Source: Camelus ferus (taxonomy: Eukaryota). Taken from it: 64,000 nucleotides of DNA. The notes beneath the pieces are model-generated. The model saw nothing but the letters and a program-made list of their open reading frames with translations, searched no databases and was not told the DNA's origin. Of the stretch, positions 3,771 through 64,000 are shown piece after piece. The DNA lies in assembly GCF_009834535.1 (NCBI RefSeq), contig NC_045696.1:26290001-26354000 (forward strand). The letters run 5' to 3'. A program made the translations under genes and the position numbers. Positions within the stretch are counted from its first letter, which is position 1. Each line of letters starts with the position of its first letter.

Positions 3771-6564
3771 ACAGGATACGAAATACACACTTAGATATAT
3801 TTTATGCAGTGCTTTAATGGTATTGTTTTCATCATGTAGGATTTGAGGGAGTATACAAAAAAGTCACTGTAGGAATTTCCCCCTTTTAATTCTCATCAGT
3901 ATTATTAAGCAATTACTATGGCTAAGCTACTATGGGAGAGAAACATGAAATAATTACATCTGCATTGGAGATATAGCTAATTTCCAGTATAATTTCCACC
4001 TGACTCTCTCCAGTCTTACAAGGCACAGAATTAATATCTAGTGAAGGCAATTAATTGTAATATTTAATTGACACCTGTTATTGTATGGAAATCCTATTCT
4101 GCCTAAACATTATAAATATTCAAAAAGAAATAAAGACTATGTTAGTATATTTTAGTATATATCAAAAGATTTTCTATCTCTAATAATCACCATCTCTAGT
4201 ATGGCCACTTTTTCTAATGGAAAAAAACAACCAAGAACTCTGCAAGAAAAAAATTATTTTCAGAAAATACATTTTTAATTATTGGACTGTTTAATTTTGG
4301 AAGACTATTGAAAATATACAGTGAACCTTTTTATTATGCAAATATATTCAGTTCTGAAAATAATTAAGTGATAATAAAGCATTCTCTTTTTCTTTACATC
4401 ATATTCCAGTAATGAAGCTGTTACCTCTCAGTGTGCATTTAATGAGTTTTAACTAACATTGTCATGAGCTGACATTATCATAAAGCTAAGAATTAGACAA
4501 AATTGAATTTACTGGTATAGAGAAAGTTTCCTCAAGAGTTAATTATATTATTTAAGATGGACTATAATTCATTTTATGATATACCACCATCATCCTATAA
4601 GAAAAACTGTATTAATAGATCATTATACTTAACCTGTACAAACATGTAACCTTTTTTGCACTTTTAAAATAAAAAACTCATGATGTCTTTATATACTCAA
4701 GTCATATGAATATAAAAGGCACAAGCATATCAAAGAAAATAAACCAAAATTTTTATAAAGTTAAATACATTTTTCCACATTTTCTCTAAGTAAAATTCCA
4801 TAAAGAACTTTCAAATGGAGATAAGTTTTTATTTTTTAAGGAAGAATTATTTATAATTTTCTTGATTCAGCTATTTAAAGTGGACTTATAGAATTGCAAC
4901 TTATAATTTGATAGAGATGAGGAACTTTTTCTAAATAAATGATATTTTGGCTTTTACGGATTATATGTTGACAATAAATATACGTGACAGGTTTAAGCCT
5001 TACAATCACTGTTGTTTGCTCCTTCCTCCATAACTTCCTCATTTTTTAGTCCAGTCCTGCAGTGAGGCAATTATGAAGCTTAGATCTAGATCAGAAGGTT
5101 GTCATCTATCTCACTCACCTTTGTCTAATACCTAGCTCAGAGTAGGCCTTCAAGTTGTCTTAAATGAAAAGAGACCTTTTCAACATTAAATTTTTTTTTG
5201 AATTTCCATTTCTATCTTAGAAAATAACTAATTAATCAAGTTGCATACTTTGATCTCTAAGGTCAGGCTTATTACCATCCTACAGATATTTTGTTTACAT
5301 TTGTATTTCAAAGCACCATTCTTATGGAAATTTGCAGTTTGTGTCACTGAGTGACTTGTGAGAAACCAGGTTTCCATACCCTCTTCACAACTCTTCACAT
5401 TGAATCCAGTTGGAGCAGATGGTGTACTTTTAAAACACTCTTAATCAAAATTATTCTTCTTCATACATTGTTAAACATACACATTAGTAATTAATACATT
5501 TGCGGGGTTCAAAATCAAAACGTATAAACTACATGTAGCGGAAATCTTCCTCTCTCATCCCTCACTTTCTGCTTTTGTTTTTCTCTGCAAAGGCATTTGT
5601 TATTATTAGTTTCTTGTGTATCCTTCTAGAGATTGTTTTTTGTACATGCAAGCACATTCCAGCATGTTTCTTTCTTTTTGTAATTAATTAAAACATACAG
5701 CGCATATTGCAAATCCAGCTCTGAAGCTGGCTCCTCTAAAAGGCCTTCTTTGTTGAAAGTAGTTTCCCTCCTTTGTTATCTTGATATATTTTCAATGTGA
5801 TTCTCTGATGCTGCGTGCTTTTTTTATTTCTTATTGTGGTTTTTGAGTTACATTCGGTAACTTTCCTACATCTCTTTAGCACCCTGAAGGCAAGAGCTCA
5901 GCTTGAAATATTTTGTACTTCTAAGTGTGTTATGTAGCACTTGTCCCCATTGGGACATTCAGTACTTACTTATTAAATAAAAGAGAAACCAATGATTTAA
6001 AAAAACTCTTCTGTCATCTCAAGGTAGTAGTTACAACTGGAACTGATTGAAAAGTGAAAATATCTGATTTATCTGATATTGATGAAACCAAAGCAAAATT
6101 AAATATCATATTAAAAACACCTTTTAGAAATGAACTGGGTAAAACTTATTGAGTAAAGTTACACTTTTTGATTTGGAGAAACCAGTGACATTTTATTGCC
6201 CAGATAATACTTCACAACATAAAGAATAACACCTAAATACATTTGACTTGAGGATTATACAGTTGTATATAAATCCCAACTCCGACAGTTCTCACTTACA
6301 GTAATTATCACCATCTGGGAGCAACTGCATGTATTTGACTGTCTGACCCTCCAGACTTTAAAAGGAGAAATATTTTATACACGAGATGGAGTTCTTCAAG
6401 ATTATTAACCATTTGACAGTTGAAGGAATTAAAACTTGACATATCATTAAATTCACTTAGAATCAGATAAAAAGTACAATTTCAGGGTCATTGTTTTTCA
6501 CTAGTACTCCTAATTCCTAACAACAGCAATGATTTTCATTTCTGAAATGCTTCCTTTAGCTTGT

Positions 6565-18205: not shown

Positions 18206-18363
18206 TGTTACGAGATGACTTCCGGCAAAATCCCACAGATGTTGTAGTGGCAGCCGGAGAGCCTGCAATCCTGGAGTGCCAGCCTCCCCGGGGACACCCA
18301 GAGCCCACCATCTACTGGAAGAAAGACAAAATTCGAATTGACGACAAGGAAGAAAGAATAAGT
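18206..18363 (+). CDS. ROBO2: ROBO2 coding exon (exon 3, 158 nt), first part of Ig domain 2
   Basis: Acceptor ttgtttttcttcag|, donor |gtgagt. After 2 nt completing a split codon it reads [52 protein letters not shown], recognised as ROBO2 Ig2. Ends in phase 0. Confidence 0.97.
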
Positions 18364-21119: not shown

Positions 21120-21240
21120 ATCCGTGGTGGAAAACTGATGATCTCCAACACCAGGAAAAGTGATGCAGGGATGTACACCTGTGTTGGCACCAATATGGTG
21201 GGAGAAAGAGACAGCGATCCAGCAGAGCTGACTGTCTTTG
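21120..21240 (+). CDS. ROBO2: ROBO2 coding exon (exon 4, 121 nt), second part of Ig domain 2
   Basis: Long pyrimidine tract ending ttttaacag|, donor |gtaaaa. Reads [40 protein letters not shown] plus 1 nt, with the Ig D-x-G-x-Y-x-C motif. In frame with the previous exon. Confidence 0.97.
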
Positions 21241-23542
21241 GTAAAACTCTCTTTTAAATTATAAATTGCTATTTATATCTACTTTTCCTTTGCTTTTAAA
21301 CTTTTTTATTACACCAGGCTGTATAGGAACAGTTAACTTATGACTTGTGCTGAGCATTGATAGACTAGAATTGTCTTGTTTTCTGGTTTTGTCTTTCATA
21401 TGAAATCTTTGCTATGAAGAAAAACAAAACTTTTGAAACATTAATTTACCTGCTTTATTCATATGTATTTATAGGATTTTGCCTTTCATCAAAATGTAAA
21501 AACTTGCTCTTTCTCCAAATCTATTTGAGAGATTATATCCACCTAAAGTTTATCATTCATTCCATTGTGATACATTTATCAAGTATTTATTATGTATATG
21601 ACCCAGGGTAAGGTTTTTAAAAATTAGAGAGTGCAGTGTAAAGACATTGCACTTGTTTTCTGCTTTAGGAAATTTCAGTGGAGCTATTTGCAGTTTTAGT
21701 TCATGACAAAAAGACAAGCTTGCCAGCTATATGCACACACAATCAAAATTAGAAAAAAAATATAGTAAACTGTTTTGCTATGGTATTCATGATATGATAT
21801 GAATATCATATTAATTCAATAATTAGCATCGAAAACCCACAAGTACGGTTTCTTCAACTATAAGAACCAAGGGACTCTTGGGAGTAATTCAGTTAATTGG
21901 TTGAAACCTGATTAGATCTGTATTACAGACATAGTGGCGAAGGCATTAGGAAGGAGAAGATTGGACATGATAAAGATGGTCGAGAAAGCAAAAGTAAGGA
22001 CAATACTACAGGGCAGCTGTGGAAAACTAAAAAAGAAATACAGTGACAGAAAACTGAGGAAAACAGGGATTCCAAAGATACCAGAAAATTAAACATTCCT
22101 TTAGAAGACACTAAAGTCCCATTCAAGTCTCATGTGGAGACATTTATTATACACGCACACAAATGCATGTACACAGACAAATACATAAGTACTTATACAC
22201 ACATTTATTACAGATGTTTATCTATCTATCTATATTTGAATAAAAGAATCACTATTGCAGATATTGCATGATTTTTCTTAAATACAAAAGATAATTGTGA
22301 ATTTTAAATTCCTTTTTTTTGTGCCAGTAAAACAATCTTCTGGATCTATGCATGATATGTTAAGGTCCTATTTCTGGTCATTACTCCAGAACATACCCGA
22401 GGACAGAATCAGAATCCAGCATACATCCCAAAGAACCTCTTTTGCCTTTTGAGATGTGCCACCCATGGTGTAATGGGAGTGCCACGATGCAAAAAAGAGC
22501 CATGTTATGATTTCCATCACATTTAGAGTGTTAAGGTGTGCTTTATGAATATGTACCAGAGGGCTCTGAGTACTGAGTAATCTCTGGTAATACTCCTGTG
22601 GATACTAAGCAGCTTGAAGTCCCAAATAACAAAACCAGGAGAAACCCCATAATTCATTAAAGGAATTGAACAGTAGAAATAAAACTGTTCAAAGTACGCA
22701 TGCAAATTTCTCTCCTGTGGAGCTTAGACAAGTATCAGTTTGCCCTTAAACTTCATGCAGTCATCTATAAAGGTCCGAAAATGTGCTTTACACCGTAATG
22801 AATAAAATACAGTTTTGCCTGCTAAGATATGAAATTAGTGGTCACTGAACATTAGCATTGAAAACCCACAAGTACAGCTCTTCTATTTAAAGAAACACTC
22901 ATCTCTCTTTTTCTGTAGCTACCACAAGCTTTGGAACAGAAAAATGTTGCATTACAGCAGTATATATTGCCTTCAGAAGGAAATTGAAAGGTTTAGTGTC
23001 ATTACCCAAGCAATTAGACTTACCAAAATGTGACTGTGTTATGAAATATTTACCCTGTTTTCCCTAAAGACATGATGAGAACTACAGGAGATCCCTAAAC
23101 ATGTCAGGAGTTACAGGGGGGACTTCTAAATTATTTTGAAAGTAGCTATAAACCAAAGAGATTGAATTTGTCTAGAGGCAGTTCCTCTGGAACAATTGAT
23201 TTAGAAAGCTGAGAAACATTTATCTCATGGTGTAAACTAATCAGAACTGACCTAAGGGGTTATAAGTATAATATTAAGTTGAGGGAAAAACTAAAATTCC
23301 ATTATTGATAAGAAAATAACATCCAAATTCAGAAATGGAACATGAAAATAGTAGTGATGGTCTAAATCATGGTTGTGACAAAGTATTACTTGAGAGAGAA
23401 CCCTCCTGCATCTTGATTCCCTAATTCTTAGAGAATATAAAATAGTGTGCTATGTTTAATGAGTCCTTCTTTATTTCATTTTGATGATCTTGCATCCAGA
23501 AAATGTTTTCTAGCAAACCTGTTTGTGTTTCATCGCTGTTAC

Positions 23543-23652
23543 TTTCCTTTCTTTCTTTTTCTCTTTCTTTCTTTCTCTTTCTTCCTTTCTTTCTTCCTTC
23601 CTTCCTTCCTTCCTTCCTTCCTTCCTTCCTTCCTTCCTTCCTTCCTTCCTTC

Positions 23653-23715
<63 letters not shown>

Positions 23716-32158: not shown

Positions 32159-32297
32159 AACGACCCACATTTCTCAGGAGGCCAATTAACCAGGTGGTGC
32201 TGGAGGAAGAAGCTGTAGAATTTCGTTGTCAGGTCCAGGGAGATCCTCAACCAACCGTGCGGTGGAAAAAAGATGATGCAGACTTGCCAAGAGGAAG
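32159..32297 (+). CDS. ROBO2: ROBO2 coding exon (exon 5, 139 nt), first part of Ig domain 3
   Basis: Poly-T tract then ccctaag|, donor |gtaaga. Reads (E)[45 protein letters not shown](R). Phase 1 in, phase 2 out. Confidence 0.97.

Positions 32298-56957: not shown

Positions 56958-56996
<39 letters not shown>
56958..56996 (+). repeat. (TG)n microsatellite
   Basis: About 19 units ending ~100 nt upstream of the exon 6 acceptor. Confidence 0.95.
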
Positions 56997-57097: not shown

Positions 57098-57225
57098 GTA
57101 TGACATCAAAGATGATTACACGCTAAGAATCAAAAAGGCCATGAGTACAGATGAAGGCACGTATATGTGTATTGCTGAGAATCGGGTCGGAAAAGTGGAA
57201 GCTTCTGCTACCCTCACAGTCCGAG
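57098..57225 (+). CDS. ROBO2: ROBO2 coding exon (exon 6, 128 nt), second part of Ig domain 3
   Basis: Acceptor ttctgcacag|, donor |gtaaga. Reads (R)[42 protein letters not shown] plus 1 nt. Contained in ORF-track entry 57042..57245. Confidence 0.97.
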
Positions 57226-60200
57226 GTAAGAGACTTAAGATGTGAAATATAATTGAACCAGCAGATTAATATTTGGGTAAATTGATAAGTGAACTCACAA
57301 TCAAAATATTAGCTTATACTGTTTTATTATTATATTAAAATGCCTAGATTTTGTAACCTCTCTAATATTGGTTGAAGTAAAATTACTTTAAAATTTAGAT
57401 TTGAAGGGATGATCATTTGAAATAATTTTTACTTAATAAATAATAGCTAATACAGTTTCAAAGTAAATCTTAAAATAGAAAAGATTTACAATAGTCCTTT
57501 ATGTTTCCATTACTTCAAGCTATTTAGCATTTTTAAATGTCACTAGTTTCAAAAATACTGTTTTCTGTTTACTATATTGTCACTTTATACTAGTAGACTA
57601 TTTTTTGAAATTCTTTCTTATTTCAGCAAACAGCAATCTGAAAAAAAAAATAAGCAAAAAAAATAACACTGCTTCCAAAGGTGAAAAATGGACACAAAGA
57701 AGCTCCCACATTGAGAAAATCTGATTTAGAGACTGATTTGTGAAGTTCACTGGCCTTAAATAATTGAAAGAGTCAGTGCCGCTCCTGTAATAACGTTCAC
57801 TTTCTGGGATGTCATGCACTTTCTCAGTCATGGAATAATTTTCATTTATAGACTCCTTGCAATTGCTTATAAGTGAAAGAAAGCATTACTTAACCCTACA
57901 GTGAGTAAGAATGAATTAACCGTCTTCCTGGTGATGCGTGCTGATGCACAGGAGTAAGTGATACAGCCCGGGGTAGCGAGTAGTGCCACATGCACAGCCA
58001 CACTAGTCCTGCCAAGCAGACATTACCCACGGCATTGTTTACGCTCACAGGACTTGAAACAGAGATAGGCCAGTGCATCCGTTATCCAGGAGTCTTTCAG
58101 TCTTTCCCCCACTAGCCTGACTGATGCCCCTGCCCCTCCCTCGTGATAAGGAAGCTGGCTGCATGTTTTCTTCCATGTCTCAGTTATGTCTCACCCTGTT
58201 TAGTCAGACCTTTAGCCCTGTGCAGCTTCGCTCACAGAAGTTTTCATAAGATTAGGAGAAAGGCTTGGAGGAATCTGGATTGGCAAGAAATGTGTCAGGG
58301 ATTCTCAGACTGGTCCTCCATCTGGTAAGAAAAATGGTTTTTTGCCAGATGTATGATTTGGGCATCAAATCATTAACAAAACAAAACAAAAAAACACTTC
58401 ATCTTCCTCCAGGGAACTATTAGGAGACCTTTACTCTGGATACCTAGAAAAATATTGGTAATTTCCAAACTTGTCAGTCACTCCATTCCCATTCCACCTA
58501 ATTCATCTTTTTTTTTTTTCCCCAACCAGACATGCCAGTGTGAACTTAGATTTAGGCAAATTAAATTTAGGCAAAATTGGCAAGCCAGTTGCTTAAAAAC
58601 ATTTTCATTCCTCATTAAAGGAGGAATCATATTGCAATTTTATATATATATATATAAATATGTGTACATATATGTATCATATATGATCAAAATCTAATAG
58701 CGTTTATAAGCCTCTTTACTATATTTAACCTACATTCTCTGGGAGGTGATTATATATTTATATCTATTTGTTTGCTTCAATTTAGTCAACCTTTTGCAGA
58801 AACAATTCACTTGGCCACATTTCCCCTAAAGTTTGTTTGTTTGTTTTTGCTGAAGTGAGTAGGAAAAAAAATAAACAACTAACCAAGAAATGTCCCATTC
58901 AAAAAATATTTGCTGACTAAACAAATGGTGAGGAAATGTGAGGAGCTGTTTGTTTGTAGAAGTGGCGGGGCTCCTTTTATACTTGAATGCTTGGGTGAAT
59001 GAGATTTGAAGTGGTCTGTTTCATTTAAGGTCTTTCCCAGCTAATTGTTTTCATAATTTGTTGAAAGTTTCAGGTTTACCATTTTATTTAACAAAGCATG
59101 CTCCTCCTGGATGGATGTTTGAAGCTAATTTACAAAACTAATAGAAAGAGTTGTTTGTTTTTAATGGGATTTCCTCTTAAATCAGAAAACCTTAAGTGGT
59201 CTCGCCCCTAATCTGTGTCCTGTAGATGGATTAGAGAGTTTAATCTTTGCGTTATGTATTTCATCTAAGACTGAAACCTCCAAAACAGGGTTAAAGAAAA
59301 AAAATCTCCACAATATAATAGAATGTGAGTGAAATATTGTTTAAGAATATTTTTTATCATCAGGAAAAGCGGTTGGGATTTCTCATGCTATGAGATTAAC
59401 AGGAGAAAAAACATATTATCTATGGCTTATTTTTTTCTATGCTCATTTTTCTGTGCACATAAATGAAATGTTCAGCCCTTCTCTGGATTGTTTTATTAGA
59501 ACGGGGTCAACTGACCCAAGAGGCCACATCCATTTTCATCCATTTAATGCAGGGACACAGTTTAGTTTAATTTGCTGATTTTGAAAACATCCACCTGCTG
59601 GTTTTTTCCAACATGAAATGTTGCTATGTAACAAAGGCAAGAAGTTTTATTGTGGTATTTCTGCTAAAATTGTATCATGCTATTCACTTTAGTGAATTGG
59701 GGAAAAGAAAAGGGAGTTTTATAGTTAAAATCTGAAACAGACTTACTCAGTTGTTTTCCACTTCAAAAATATGGTGAATATAGACTATAAAATTAAACTT
59801 AACAGCAAGTAGCTCCTTTTGCTGACTTGACAAACAGAAAATTAGAAAGAAACAATGTTAGACAACAACAAGCCTCTTAGCATTTATATTCTAATCAAAT
59901 AATTCATGATTTAATAGGACTTTTAAAAAATGACTCAAAATGAGTGAATACAGATTGCATATTTGTAAACACAATTTTTCCCATTTTTCAGTTGCTTAAA
60001 TTGGTTTTGCATAAATCAAGACTTCTTTGGAAAAACAATCTTGTTTCCAGAGAAATAAAACCTAATTTTTCTTGGAATTACCCTAGACTAAGTGAAACAG
60101 AAACGTATTTTATTTCTTCAAAACATGATTTCTCACCATGTTTTTTCTTTTATCTCTTTACAGTCATAGACTCATAGACTCAAAATGTATTTTTGTTTCT

Positions 60201-61684
60201 AAGAGAAACATGTTTGAGGTTCAGCTTGAGGTAGCACTTGAAAAATGCAAATTCAGAAATGAAAGACAAATTTTTTTTCTACTAAACACTGGCAAAATGA
60301 AGAGAAATCTCATCAGTTAGAATAAGTTAGAATAAGGCACACCATTATTATGTTAGTATTTGTTTTGTTCTTAGTTGTTATTTTTGTGTGCCTGGACCCT
60401 CCCCCCTCCAAAAAAGAAAGCAATTATGCATTGTTCAGCTTACATTTTCCCTCTTGCTATTAGTAAACCCACTGTAGATTGTAGGACACACCAGAGTTTC
60501 ACCAAGCTAGAATCTTCATTCTGTTGCTATAATTGCTTTTATTCTTCTCTGAAGGGTTTTAATTCCTCCCTTTTAATTGTGAATAATACTATAAGACCAT
60601 GAATCTCATGTAGAAGAAACTTCAGTGTTATTTCAGAGGTTGCACAAAGCTAGTATTATGATGTCTGTTGAGTGAATGAATGCCTATAAATATGATTTCA
60701 ATGGCTGTATAACCACACCCAGCAACACATCATCAAGACAAAACCACTCGTAAGTTCAAGAGTCATATTGTGTGCACTAGAGCTTTATCCACTGGGATAT
60801 GGGTGAAACACTTGTCTGTAGAGTAAATTTTTATTTTGAAATGTAAGATTTCATAAAAGTTCAAACACTACTGAATCCGTTCCTTCTTCATTTGAACATT
60901 GGGACCATATGTTTTATACTTGTCCATTACTTTTATAAAAAGTGGTTTACTATCTAAATTGACTTAGCATTATTCTTTTTAAAGAAAGTATTATTAAGCC
61001 AATGTCTGTCTCTTACAATTTCTATGTATTAATAACAGGGCAGCCTATTACTACTGATTTTAGTGATTGAAAGTTACGGTATAATAAAAAAATAGTAATT
61101 TGTTGAAGTAGCAGTTTGAAAGCCATTCTCGTGAGCAAGAATCAATTTGTCAGTCATTGTTTCCTGCCCTCTGCCAAGAAAAGAAAAGAGCTTAACAGTA
61201 GTTAGGGGGCTACTCAGTTGAAATCTCTAAGGATGTTCCAACCTATTTGTTATATTTTCATCCACCCTGTCCACGGATGAAAAGTGATGTGATCTTAACT
61301 TATTACTGGCTGAAAAGCAGCATCAGGGGCTTTTCAGTAGTCCTTGTAATGGTTCTGACTAACCATGCTTAAAATCCAATTGCTATTTAAATCAGACACT
61401 GAAGCCTTCTTTTATTGACATGACATTTGCTAGTCTGTGACTTGAATAGTTATATTCATCAGGTTCCTAACTTTGGGATAAACAAAGCTGTTTAGCTCTA
61501 AGGAGATCTTTGAAATAGTAACTATAGTAAGTGATGATGACAATAAGACCTCATGTAAACTGTCTCTCAAATTACTTAGAGTTAATCATGACATGCAAAA
61601 TATTTATTTTCTTAGAATTCTATTTATAATTTTCAGTTTTTATCAAGCTAAGACGTCCTGTTCATATTTGAGTAATGAGACTAG

Positions 61685-61918
61685 AAATCACCCTACTGTC
61701 CATACTTAAATGTAACATTACACATCATGCATTCTGATAATTTTCTTTTCTTTTTTTTTTTTAATTTCTTTTTTATGTTCTCACTACACCATTGTAATGT
61801 CTACAGCTCGCCCTGTTGGTAAGTAGCCATCCTCTATCCATTTCGCATGGCTTTGTATAGTGCTTCATAGCTCATGCAGAGTAGGATATAACGGAATGGA
61901 ATACATTTGTTCACCCAT
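61685..61918 (+). promoter_or_regulatory. Splicing-regulatory region around the microexon (YCAY clusters, GCATG, long pyrimidine tract)
   Basis: YCAY at 61688, 61700, 61725, 61781, 61789 upstream and 61827, 61838, 61865, 61872, 61911, 61915 downstream. GCATG at 61845-61849. T-rich tract 61741-61774. Confidence 0.65.
61807..61818 (+). CDS. ROBO2: ROBO2 12-nt alternative microexon (exon 6b), Ig3-Ig4 linker
   Basis: ctacag|CTCGCCCTGTTG|gtaagt. Phase 1 at both ends; with the last G of exon 6 it gives GCT CGC CCT GTT G (A-R-P-V), matching the remembered long isoform VRARPVAPPQF. Confidence 0.92.
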
Positions 61919-62884
61919 GTTAAAATATTACCTGAGGGACTGTCTGCTATAAAAGTTGCTCCTGATTTTTTCATCACTTTGAAAAACCATAACTTTTTGC
62001 TACCTAGCAATTAATAGGTAACCGTTTTCAAGTAAAAGAATATATGAATGATTGATGTTATAAACTGCTAACTTTACTTAAGGAGAAAAAATGTAATACT
62101 TCCTTTTATTCCTGTGCATATAAAATAGTCAATTGTGAGTTACGTTTGATATTTGTTAAGGTAAAGCACTATGAATTAAATTAGAAGTTCCATTACTTTA
62201 TGCACTTTTATTTTAAGCTGCTTGGAGTTCTTGCTTTGTAAGGGTATATTTTTTTTTACTGCTGTACACTTATCTGCATGCCTACTTCAGCAAAATTTAG
62301 TAGAATGCTTCAAGTTACTGTTACATTGATGCTTATGCTAAGAGGAAAATGGAGGGATGAGCTGTGTTCTTTGGCATGAAAAGTTTGTGATTTGAATATA
62401 TCTCATTCTTCATTTGGCTTTGCAAAATTGAAGTTAACAGCTTGAACTTGCAGTAATTTAAGTGGTAATTATTTTAAACAAATACACAATCTTCTCAAAT
62501 TTATTGGTTAATAACCTTTCTGCATTTATTTTAAAGTTTAGCTTCAACTGCCAAGAAATGTGTTTAAATCAAAGAAATCTTGATAATTGTGTTAGAAGAA
62601 AATGAATAGATGTATGTATGCATAAATGGATGGATGGGTGGATGAATAAATGAATTTAGTACATAGCTTTTTTAATACACTAAGAGATGTTTTAACAAGT
62701 TTTCAGTTTGACATAGCTTTATAAATGGTCCATCTAACTTCAAAAGCTTTCTTAATATACTGGCTTGACATTGTTGGCATTTGATATATATTAATCCAAA
62801 CTCATATAACATTTCCCCCCATTGGTTGAAACATTCACAAGCATTATTGTTATGTAATATTTTCTTATATGAGAGCAAATATAG

Positions 62885-63090
62885 TAAATAGAACTTTGGT
62901 TTCCCAATCTGAATTTCTGTTCTGCCATTTCTGAGCAGTATTTCCTTTGTAATTTATTCAAGATCCCTAATCCTCAGCCACTTCCTCAATAAAATGGAGA
63001 GAAAAACCCTGACTTGTCAAAACTGCTGTGGAATGAATTAAGTTCAAGATTGATCACACGTGTGAAAACATTTTGTATGCCAACGTTGGT
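62885..63090 (+). mobile_element. MIR SINE
   Basis: tctgaatttctgttctgccattt...ctcagccacttcctcaataaaatggag...acgtgtgaaaacattttgta. Confidence 0.6.
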
Positions 63091-64000
63091 TAACATATTC
63101 CTAGTTTCTGAGACATACATTACTTCACATTTCAATATTTTCAAAATATACTGTGGCTTACAATCGATTTGAACATAAACTACAAACATTTTTTCTTGAA
63201 ACACAATTGTTAAATTGTGCGTTTTAAAATTGATGCTGTTAAAAAATTAGGAAATATATTATCATTTTTAATCTTCATTTTTTGTATTTGTAAGAATTCA
63301 TATTAATGATAACTTTACATATCAATTATATGACATCTAAAATTAAGACATGAGTGGGAAAGAATAAGGTAATAACTTCAAATTAACAGGAAAATCACAT
63401 TTAAATTATAGATCTTTATATACAGAAACTTTATGTCGATAAACCATGACCACTTGATTTATATTATTTCACAAGTTCCTGGAACATAGAACAATATATT
63501 AATAATTTCCAATATATTAAAAGTCATGAATAAAAATACATTGAATAGAAGATATGATGTACACAGAGTACTGAGATGTATTTGTCACCTACAAGGCACT
63601 TCAAAGTTACTTCTTTTTTTATTCTTGTTTAAAATGATTTCTTAAATTCCCATTGGACTGGAACTAAAGAATAGATTCTTGACACACTATACTTTATTCT
63701 GGGAAAGTCTGTCATTTCATAAATCTATCTTGAATGACTTATGACAGTGTTCAGAAGTATGAAGAACTATACTTGAAACTTGACAACTACTATTAATTTG
63801 GGAAACTGAATGTTGGATATGATTTTACTGGATCACCAAAGAAGAGACTAATAATGGTATTAGCCTGCTTTTCTTTGCATTAACTTTTTACATCAATTTA
63901 ATTCAGAAATCATATAAATGCTAATTGTTATTGTAAGGTCAGAAGATACAAATCAAGTAAATTATGAATTTAATATTCATATAACAGAAAACTACATTTA

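Follow-up and report, generated by a model that had tools for sequence, protein, structure and literature searches.

A 12-nt element on the plus strand of a 64-kb stretch of Camelus ferus DNA (here denoted the window), CTCGCCCTGTTG at positions 61807-61818, is almost certainly the functional orthologue of the alternative microexon 6b of ROBO2. By all features open to a sequence test, the element is confirmed as the orthologue of the known exon 6b, and the biology is already known: what is gained is a further species for a regulatory event that is conserved and published. An initial annotation of the same DNA had described the element as not new biology, correctly, the exon having been studied in mouse. 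To be correct, an annotated ROBO2 model of Camelus ferus has to contain microexon 6b, which is probably part of the main form outside mature neurons.

Microexon 6b, its splice signals and its host gene

The microexon is preceded by CAG (61804-61806) and followed by the consensus 5' splice site GTAAGT (61819-61824, plus strand). It is 12 nt long, has canonical AG/GT borders, preserves the frame and lies 3' of exon 6, from which it is separated by an intron of 4,581 nt. Read in phase 1-1 with the G left over from exon 6, it encodes A-R-P-V, added between Ig3 and Ig4. Exon 7 lies outside the window, and on the downstream side the symmetry of phase is taken from orthologues. The initial annotation had placed this 12-mer, with its cag flank and gtaagt donor, at the same positions, 4.6 kb after exon 6 and in symmetric phase 1 with the translation A-R-P-V, and in all of these it agrees with our measurements, for the downstream phase by way of the orthologues.

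The branch-point consensus is yUnAy. Upstream of the microexon, an AG-free zone of 120 nt (61685-61804, plus strand) holds four candidates for this element, with the A at -70, -43, -32 and -24, together with a U-rich polypyrimidine tract (61741-61783, plus strand, 38/43 pyrimidines), with 23 nt between it and the exon. By its position directly upstream of the pyrimidine tract, the -70 candidate is the likeliest branch point. As the first step of the mechanism that we propose, which the window sequence shows, the consensus donor, the long U-rich tract and the long AG-free zone define a frame-preserving 12-nt exon. Folding of 61680-61900 also predicted an RNA stem that would hide the acceptor, in which 61711-61722 pairs with 61793-61805 and the pyrimidine tract is looped out. 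This candidate was rejected as unsupported: the helix has a z of -1.49, its p fell from about 0.99 to 0.4 and the helix was then gone in longer folding windows, and 10.8% of the 1,968 YAG sites in the window have an upstream partner as good. The predicted helix covers the conserved acceptor-proximal stretch and is not significant against the other YAG sites.

Exons 3-6 of ROBO2 were found by tblastn with three mammalian ROBO2 proteins, their bounds set by splice dinucleotides and their numbers counted backwards from the exon that Johnson, Junge and Chen (2019, PMC6687390) call exon 6. All four are on the plus strand, upstream of microexon 6b: exon 3 at 18206-18363 (158 nt, phase 1-0), exon 4 at 21120-21240 (121 nt, phase 0-1), exon 5 at 32159-32297 (139 nt, phase 1-2) and exon 6, the second half of Ig3, at 57098-57225 (128 nt, phase 2-1). 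Their phases chain, they are in frame with zero stops, and they are identical at 179/179 residues to an alpaca ROBO2 model (P0050), which carries ARPV. In the PDB, the exon 6 peptide matched human ROBO2 best (114 bits, vs 77 for ROBO1), and every one of the best 120 of 1,100 database matches was named ROBO2. By sequence, the host gene is identified as ROBO2 and not ROBO1 or ROBO3. A (TG)n repeat is found at ~56958-56996, ~100 nt 5' of exon 6. No Ig4 exon (exon 7) was found by tblastn in the window, which covers 2.2 kb of intron after microexon 6b; in mouse, the coordinates of a MicroExonator row (PMC7821500) place exon 7 ~23 kb further downstream of Robo2 6b.

Orthology to mouse Robo2 exon 6b and ROBO2 protein models

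The mouse e6b+ qPCR primer given in PMC6687390 consists of the final 5 nt of exon 6, identical to the window at 5/5, the 12-mer and the start of exon 7, and by this primer microexon 6b is 11/12 identical to the mouse exon. The first base is C in the window and T in mouse, resulting in ARPV vs the rodent VRPV. A mouse Robo2 6b-deletion guide from the same text matches the 3' splice site and acceptor-proximal intron (61784-61806, plus strand) at 22/23, with 20/20 in the protospacer, and ends on the acceptor AG; the next-best place has 7 mismatches. Conservation of the 12-mer and of its splice sites was among the checks that the initial annotation had named, and the 12-mer and its acceptor are both kept with mouse. 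The other four mouse guides have best window matches with 5-7 mismatches, namely 5 and 7 for the two Robo1 guides and 7 for the two further Robo2 guides; as these two Robo2 guides, which flank 6b, are unmatched, conservation of the intron is shown for 23 nt only. The mouse 12-mer is an annotated microexon (MicroExonator row chr16_-_74008774_74008786, summed coverage 2,120, PMC7821500), the row carrying no gene name and being assigned to Robo2 through the e6b+ primer. An exact scan of metagenome contigs for orthologous intron DNA, using the 20 nt before microexon 6b, gave 0 matches.

The insert was then tallied in the best 120 of the 1,100 matches, which are database predictions and not independent experiments, and in which clusters hide isoforms: 80 ROBO2 proteins carry a four-residue insert after Ig3 and 36 lack it, with 20 pairs of proteins differing by the insert alone. 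The form R-ARPV-APPQF occurs in 66 of these 120, R-VRPV in 10 (rodents), R-VRSV in 2 (caecilian), R-AHPV in 2 (marmot) and other four residues in 4, ARPV being the common amniote state (66/80 inserts). Models with the insert come from mammals, birds, crocodilians, lizards and a caecilian. By taxon, the included form is present in 46 of the 53 represented among the best 120 proteins; 18 of these also have the skipped form and 28 of the 53 have the included form only, while 5 show the skipped form only and 2 an odd form only. The microexon had been called hidden, a description that does not hold, since an insert-bearing model exists for 46/53 taxa among the 120 proteins and MicroExonator flags the mouse exon as Annotated. 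Orthology and the protein models support the rest of that assignment, namely the gene ROBO2, the identity as exon 6b and the position between Ig3 and Ig4.

Four bird models, P0070 and P0098 (Mycteria) and P0074 and P0100 (Balearica), have GKCS or GECS where others have ARPV. Read-through of the exon 6 donor (57225-57239) also starts with G-K, so the bird models seem to extend exon 6 by 12 nt and to miss the microexon; they are probably annotation artefacts, or else reflect a real alternative donor. Microexon 6b (61807-61809) and mouse exon 7 (per the primer in PMC6687390) both begin with CTC. Junction reads are thus ambiguous for three bases, misalignment is favoured and aligners can miss the microexon.

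No insert was found among the 120 best proteins at the exon 2/3 junction (pattern matched in 119, not in 1), at 3/4 (114, 6 not), at 4/5 (120) or at 5/6 (116, 4 not). We noticed a second 12-nt YAG..GTGAG candidate with a pyrimidine-rich upstream region at 5050-5061, in intron 2. It is probably not an exon, as there is no insert there in the 119/120 proteins that match the junction pattern.

Receptor output and the Ig3-Ig4 junction

For the mouse proteins, according to PMC6687390, ROBO2 isoforms with and without 6b are equal in surface level and Slit2 affinity, and with 6b included Slit2 is able to inhibit CDC42 and to activate RAC1, leading to stronger repulsion. A ROBO2 with neither 6b nor exon 21 shows no CDC42/RAC1 signalling and no block of crossing; either exon restores these, non-additively, and the effect of 6b vanishes when exon 21 is present. 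The isoforms differ clearly in chick over-expression and GTPase assays. In the same text, deletion of Robo2 e6b alone is equivalent to wild type in early-crossing and tract-position assays and the mice are viable and fertile, and reduction of Robo2 e6b helps to rescue Nova1/2 double knockouts only together with reduction of Robo1 e6b. The statement of the initial annotation that the exon tunes Slit repulsion therefore stands for over-expression and compound mutants; it does not extend to Slit2 affinity, which is unchanged, to receptors with exon 21, where there is no effect, or to deletion of Robo2 e6b alone, which is normal in the assays above. In the mechanism that we propose, with these mouse proteins as its model, the four residues at Ig3-Ig4 would leave surface level and Slit2 affinity as they are and act through CDC42 inhibition and RAC1 activation towards stronger repulsion.

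It could instead be that the alternative splicing is true and that the four residues have their main role outside axon guidance, or next to none in ROBO2, being redundant with exon 21 and with ROBO1, so that the included non-neural default is what is conserved. The viable, fertile and, in the reported assays, normal Robo2 e6b deletion mice, the masking of the 6b effect by exon 21 and the default inclusion across mouse tissues all speak for a minor role in guidance, but the help that joint reduction of Robo2 and Robo1 e6b gives in rescuing Nova1/2 double knockouts, the clear isoform differences in chick over-expression and GTPase assays and the conservation of the peptide from caecilian to mammals speak against it. 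We hold this alternative to be unlikely. It bears on function alone and would leave the identification as ROBO2 6b intact.

The effect of the insert raises a structural question, since a four-residue microexon alters receptor output without altering ligand binding. Among the 31 PDB sequences that match included-form ROBO2 (E <= 1e-40), three ROBO chains span Ig3-Ig4, 6IAA (human ROBO2) and 5OPE and 5O5G (ROBO1); each has a four-residue gap at the insert, and all are the skipped form. PMC5807052 describes ROBO1 Ig1-4 as having 'essentially no polypeptide linker' between domains, and two reviews present Ig4 as the face for dimerisation, which domain 7 masks in an auto-inhibited hairpin. The last step of the proposed mechanism, which we put forward tentatively and expect may well fail, is that the insert would make the abutting Ig3/Ig4 junction a short hinge and so ease release of the Ig4 face from the hairpin. 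That ARPV acts as a structural switch by forming a hinge in the linker-less Ig3-Ig4 junction, which would weaken either the Ig4-domain 7 hairpin or an Ig3-based antiparallel dimer, is doubtful. As the solved chains are all of the skipped form and the included form is apparently the default outside maturing neurons, the auto-inhibition model may apply to the isoform that is less active and enriched in neurons. Among the open-access literature matches listed, no title tests the effect of the insert on the hinge or on auto-inhibition.

NOVA sites, chance expectation and related exons

Mouse 6b has 7-10 NOVA sites, with YCAY in both flanking introns, and NOVA1/2 repress the exon through YCAY, as tested by mutation (PMC6687390, which also reports that 6b inclusion in rat spinal cord falls from E11 to E14). 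A change of 6b in Nova2 knockout cortex was seen independently (Saito et al. 2016, PMC4930328). The MicroExonator row (PMC7821500) assigns the exon to cluster I3 'Included' (constitutively included) and as differential in brain from E10.5-12.5 with direction -1, a sign that we read as skipping. The included cluster, the drop in brain and the repression by NOVA in mouse indicate that inclusion is the default state and that neurons switch the exon off. The description of the exon as NOVA-regulated is thus borne out for mouse, and the direction, which the initial annotation did not give, is repression of inclusion.

In the window, candidate NOVA sites were found by YCAY motif match on the plus strand at 61700, 61725, 61781 and 61789 (61700-61792) and at 61827, 61838, 61865 and 61872 (61827-61875), that is, four in the 110 nt before microexon 6b and four in the 70 nt after it. 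These 8 YCAY in 192 nt compare with a window mean of 3.07 and with 1-4 around exons 3-6, and 1.6% of spans reach 8. Local dinucleotide shuffles reach the observed counts in 16% (8 in 192 nt), 0.75% (16 in 512 nt) and 5.8% (32 in 2 kb) of cases, for spans chosen after looking. With a count of 8 reached by 16% of local shuffles, and with spans picked post hoc, the enrichment is modest and suggestive only; at that suggestive level, the count fits the 7-10 NOVA sites of mouse. By extension from mouse, the second step of the mechanism in Camelus ferus would be default inclusion in most tissues and early neurons, followed by skipping as rising NOVA1/2 bind YCAY in both flanking introns. Microexon 6b is presumably included in Camelus ferus as well. 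A sequencing-run search with a 5.4-kb stretch listed 24 runs, 20 of them with the stretch or part of it (2 recorded as RNA, 4 guessed to be RNA), a listing that is silent on splicing and in which a long, mostly intronic query would hide poly(A) runs.

An orthologous exon that has become constitutive in Camelus ferus, never skipped and with NOVA control lost, is very improbable. Strong splice signals, modest YCAY enrichment and the 28/53 taxa with the included form only, among the best 120 proteins, would suit such an exon, but that tally covers the best 120 of 1,100 matches and clusters hide isoforms; moreover, both forms occur in 18 taxa, mouse and rat are known to skip the exon, and 8 YCAY remain across both sides.

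The RBFOX motif is (U)GCAUG. A GCATG half-site is present at 61845-61849, 27 nt downstream of microexon 6b, and a full TGCATG at 62275-62280, ~460 nt downstream; both are possible candidates for RBFOX enhancers opposing NOVA. No title on RBFOX co-regulation of ROBO2 6b is present among the literature matches listed. For SRRM4, no UGC motif close to the acceptor was found between -78 and the acceptor, the nearest TGC being at -79. SRRM4-type control of microexon 6b was rejected, as there is no proximal UGC and inclusion falls in mouse and rat neurons.

The window is 35% GC and nearly all intron. It contains 84 look-alikes of the pattern YAG-N(3-30)-GTRAG on the plus strand, 6 of them with length 12, and 110 on the minus strand; the exact donor GTAAGT is present in 15 of the plus-strand look-alikes, and the only one of these with 12 nt is the microexon 6b site. 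With 84 look-alikes on its strand, the splice pattern alone is weak evidence, and orthology is the proof. Among the 84, microexon 6b ranks first for its AG-free zone (120 nt, against 59 for the runner-up) and for upstream pyrimidine fraction (0.78, against 0.73) and is joint-highest in YCAY count (8). Only 3 AG-to-AG gaps of at least 120 nt occur among the 4,246 AGs of the window, one of them being a TTTC microsatellite. A TTTC/TTCC microsatellite at ~23540-23715, in intron 4, contains the longest AG-free gap of the window (224 nt) and spurious ORFs. Rfam at gathering thresholds gave 0 matches in 1-57000 and 57300-64000. The mouse e6b 12-mer, at no more than one mismatch, has a single occurrence in the 64 kb, both strands included, at 61807-61818. 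A chance intronic match to the splice-site consensus that is not an exon, for which the 84 plus-strand look-alikes (6 of 12 nt) and the 10 places encoding 'RPV' across the six frames of the window could be cited, is already refuted by orthology and has a negligible probability, the 11/12 match to the mouse exon being unique, the acceptor matching at 22/23, and intron, strand, phase and peptide all being right.

The closest known system is mouse Robo2 exon 6b, with which the camel microexon shares the length of 12 nt, the place after exon 6 and, going by the orthologues, before exon 7, phase 1-1, 11/12 bases, the position in the Ig3-Ig4 linker, the identical 20 nt before the exon and YCAY motifs on both sides. 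The two differ in the upstream intron, 7,084 nt in mouse (by the coordinates in PMC7821500) vs 4,581 nt in the window, and the regulation was measured in mouse, whereas the window copy is known from sequence. Robo1 exon 6b has the homologous position, is likewise repressed by NOVA and falls during neural development; it differs in having 9 nt, in belonging to a paralogous gene and in carrying a knockout phenotype that is absent for Robo2 6b. Microexons typically have an extended pyrimidine tract and a distant branch point (PMC12871342), and the neural microexons of the SRRM4/nSR100 type resemble microexon 6b in these two features, in being very short and in preserving the frame. Unlike them, microexon 6b, judged on its mouse and rat orthologue, is skipped and not included as neurons mature.
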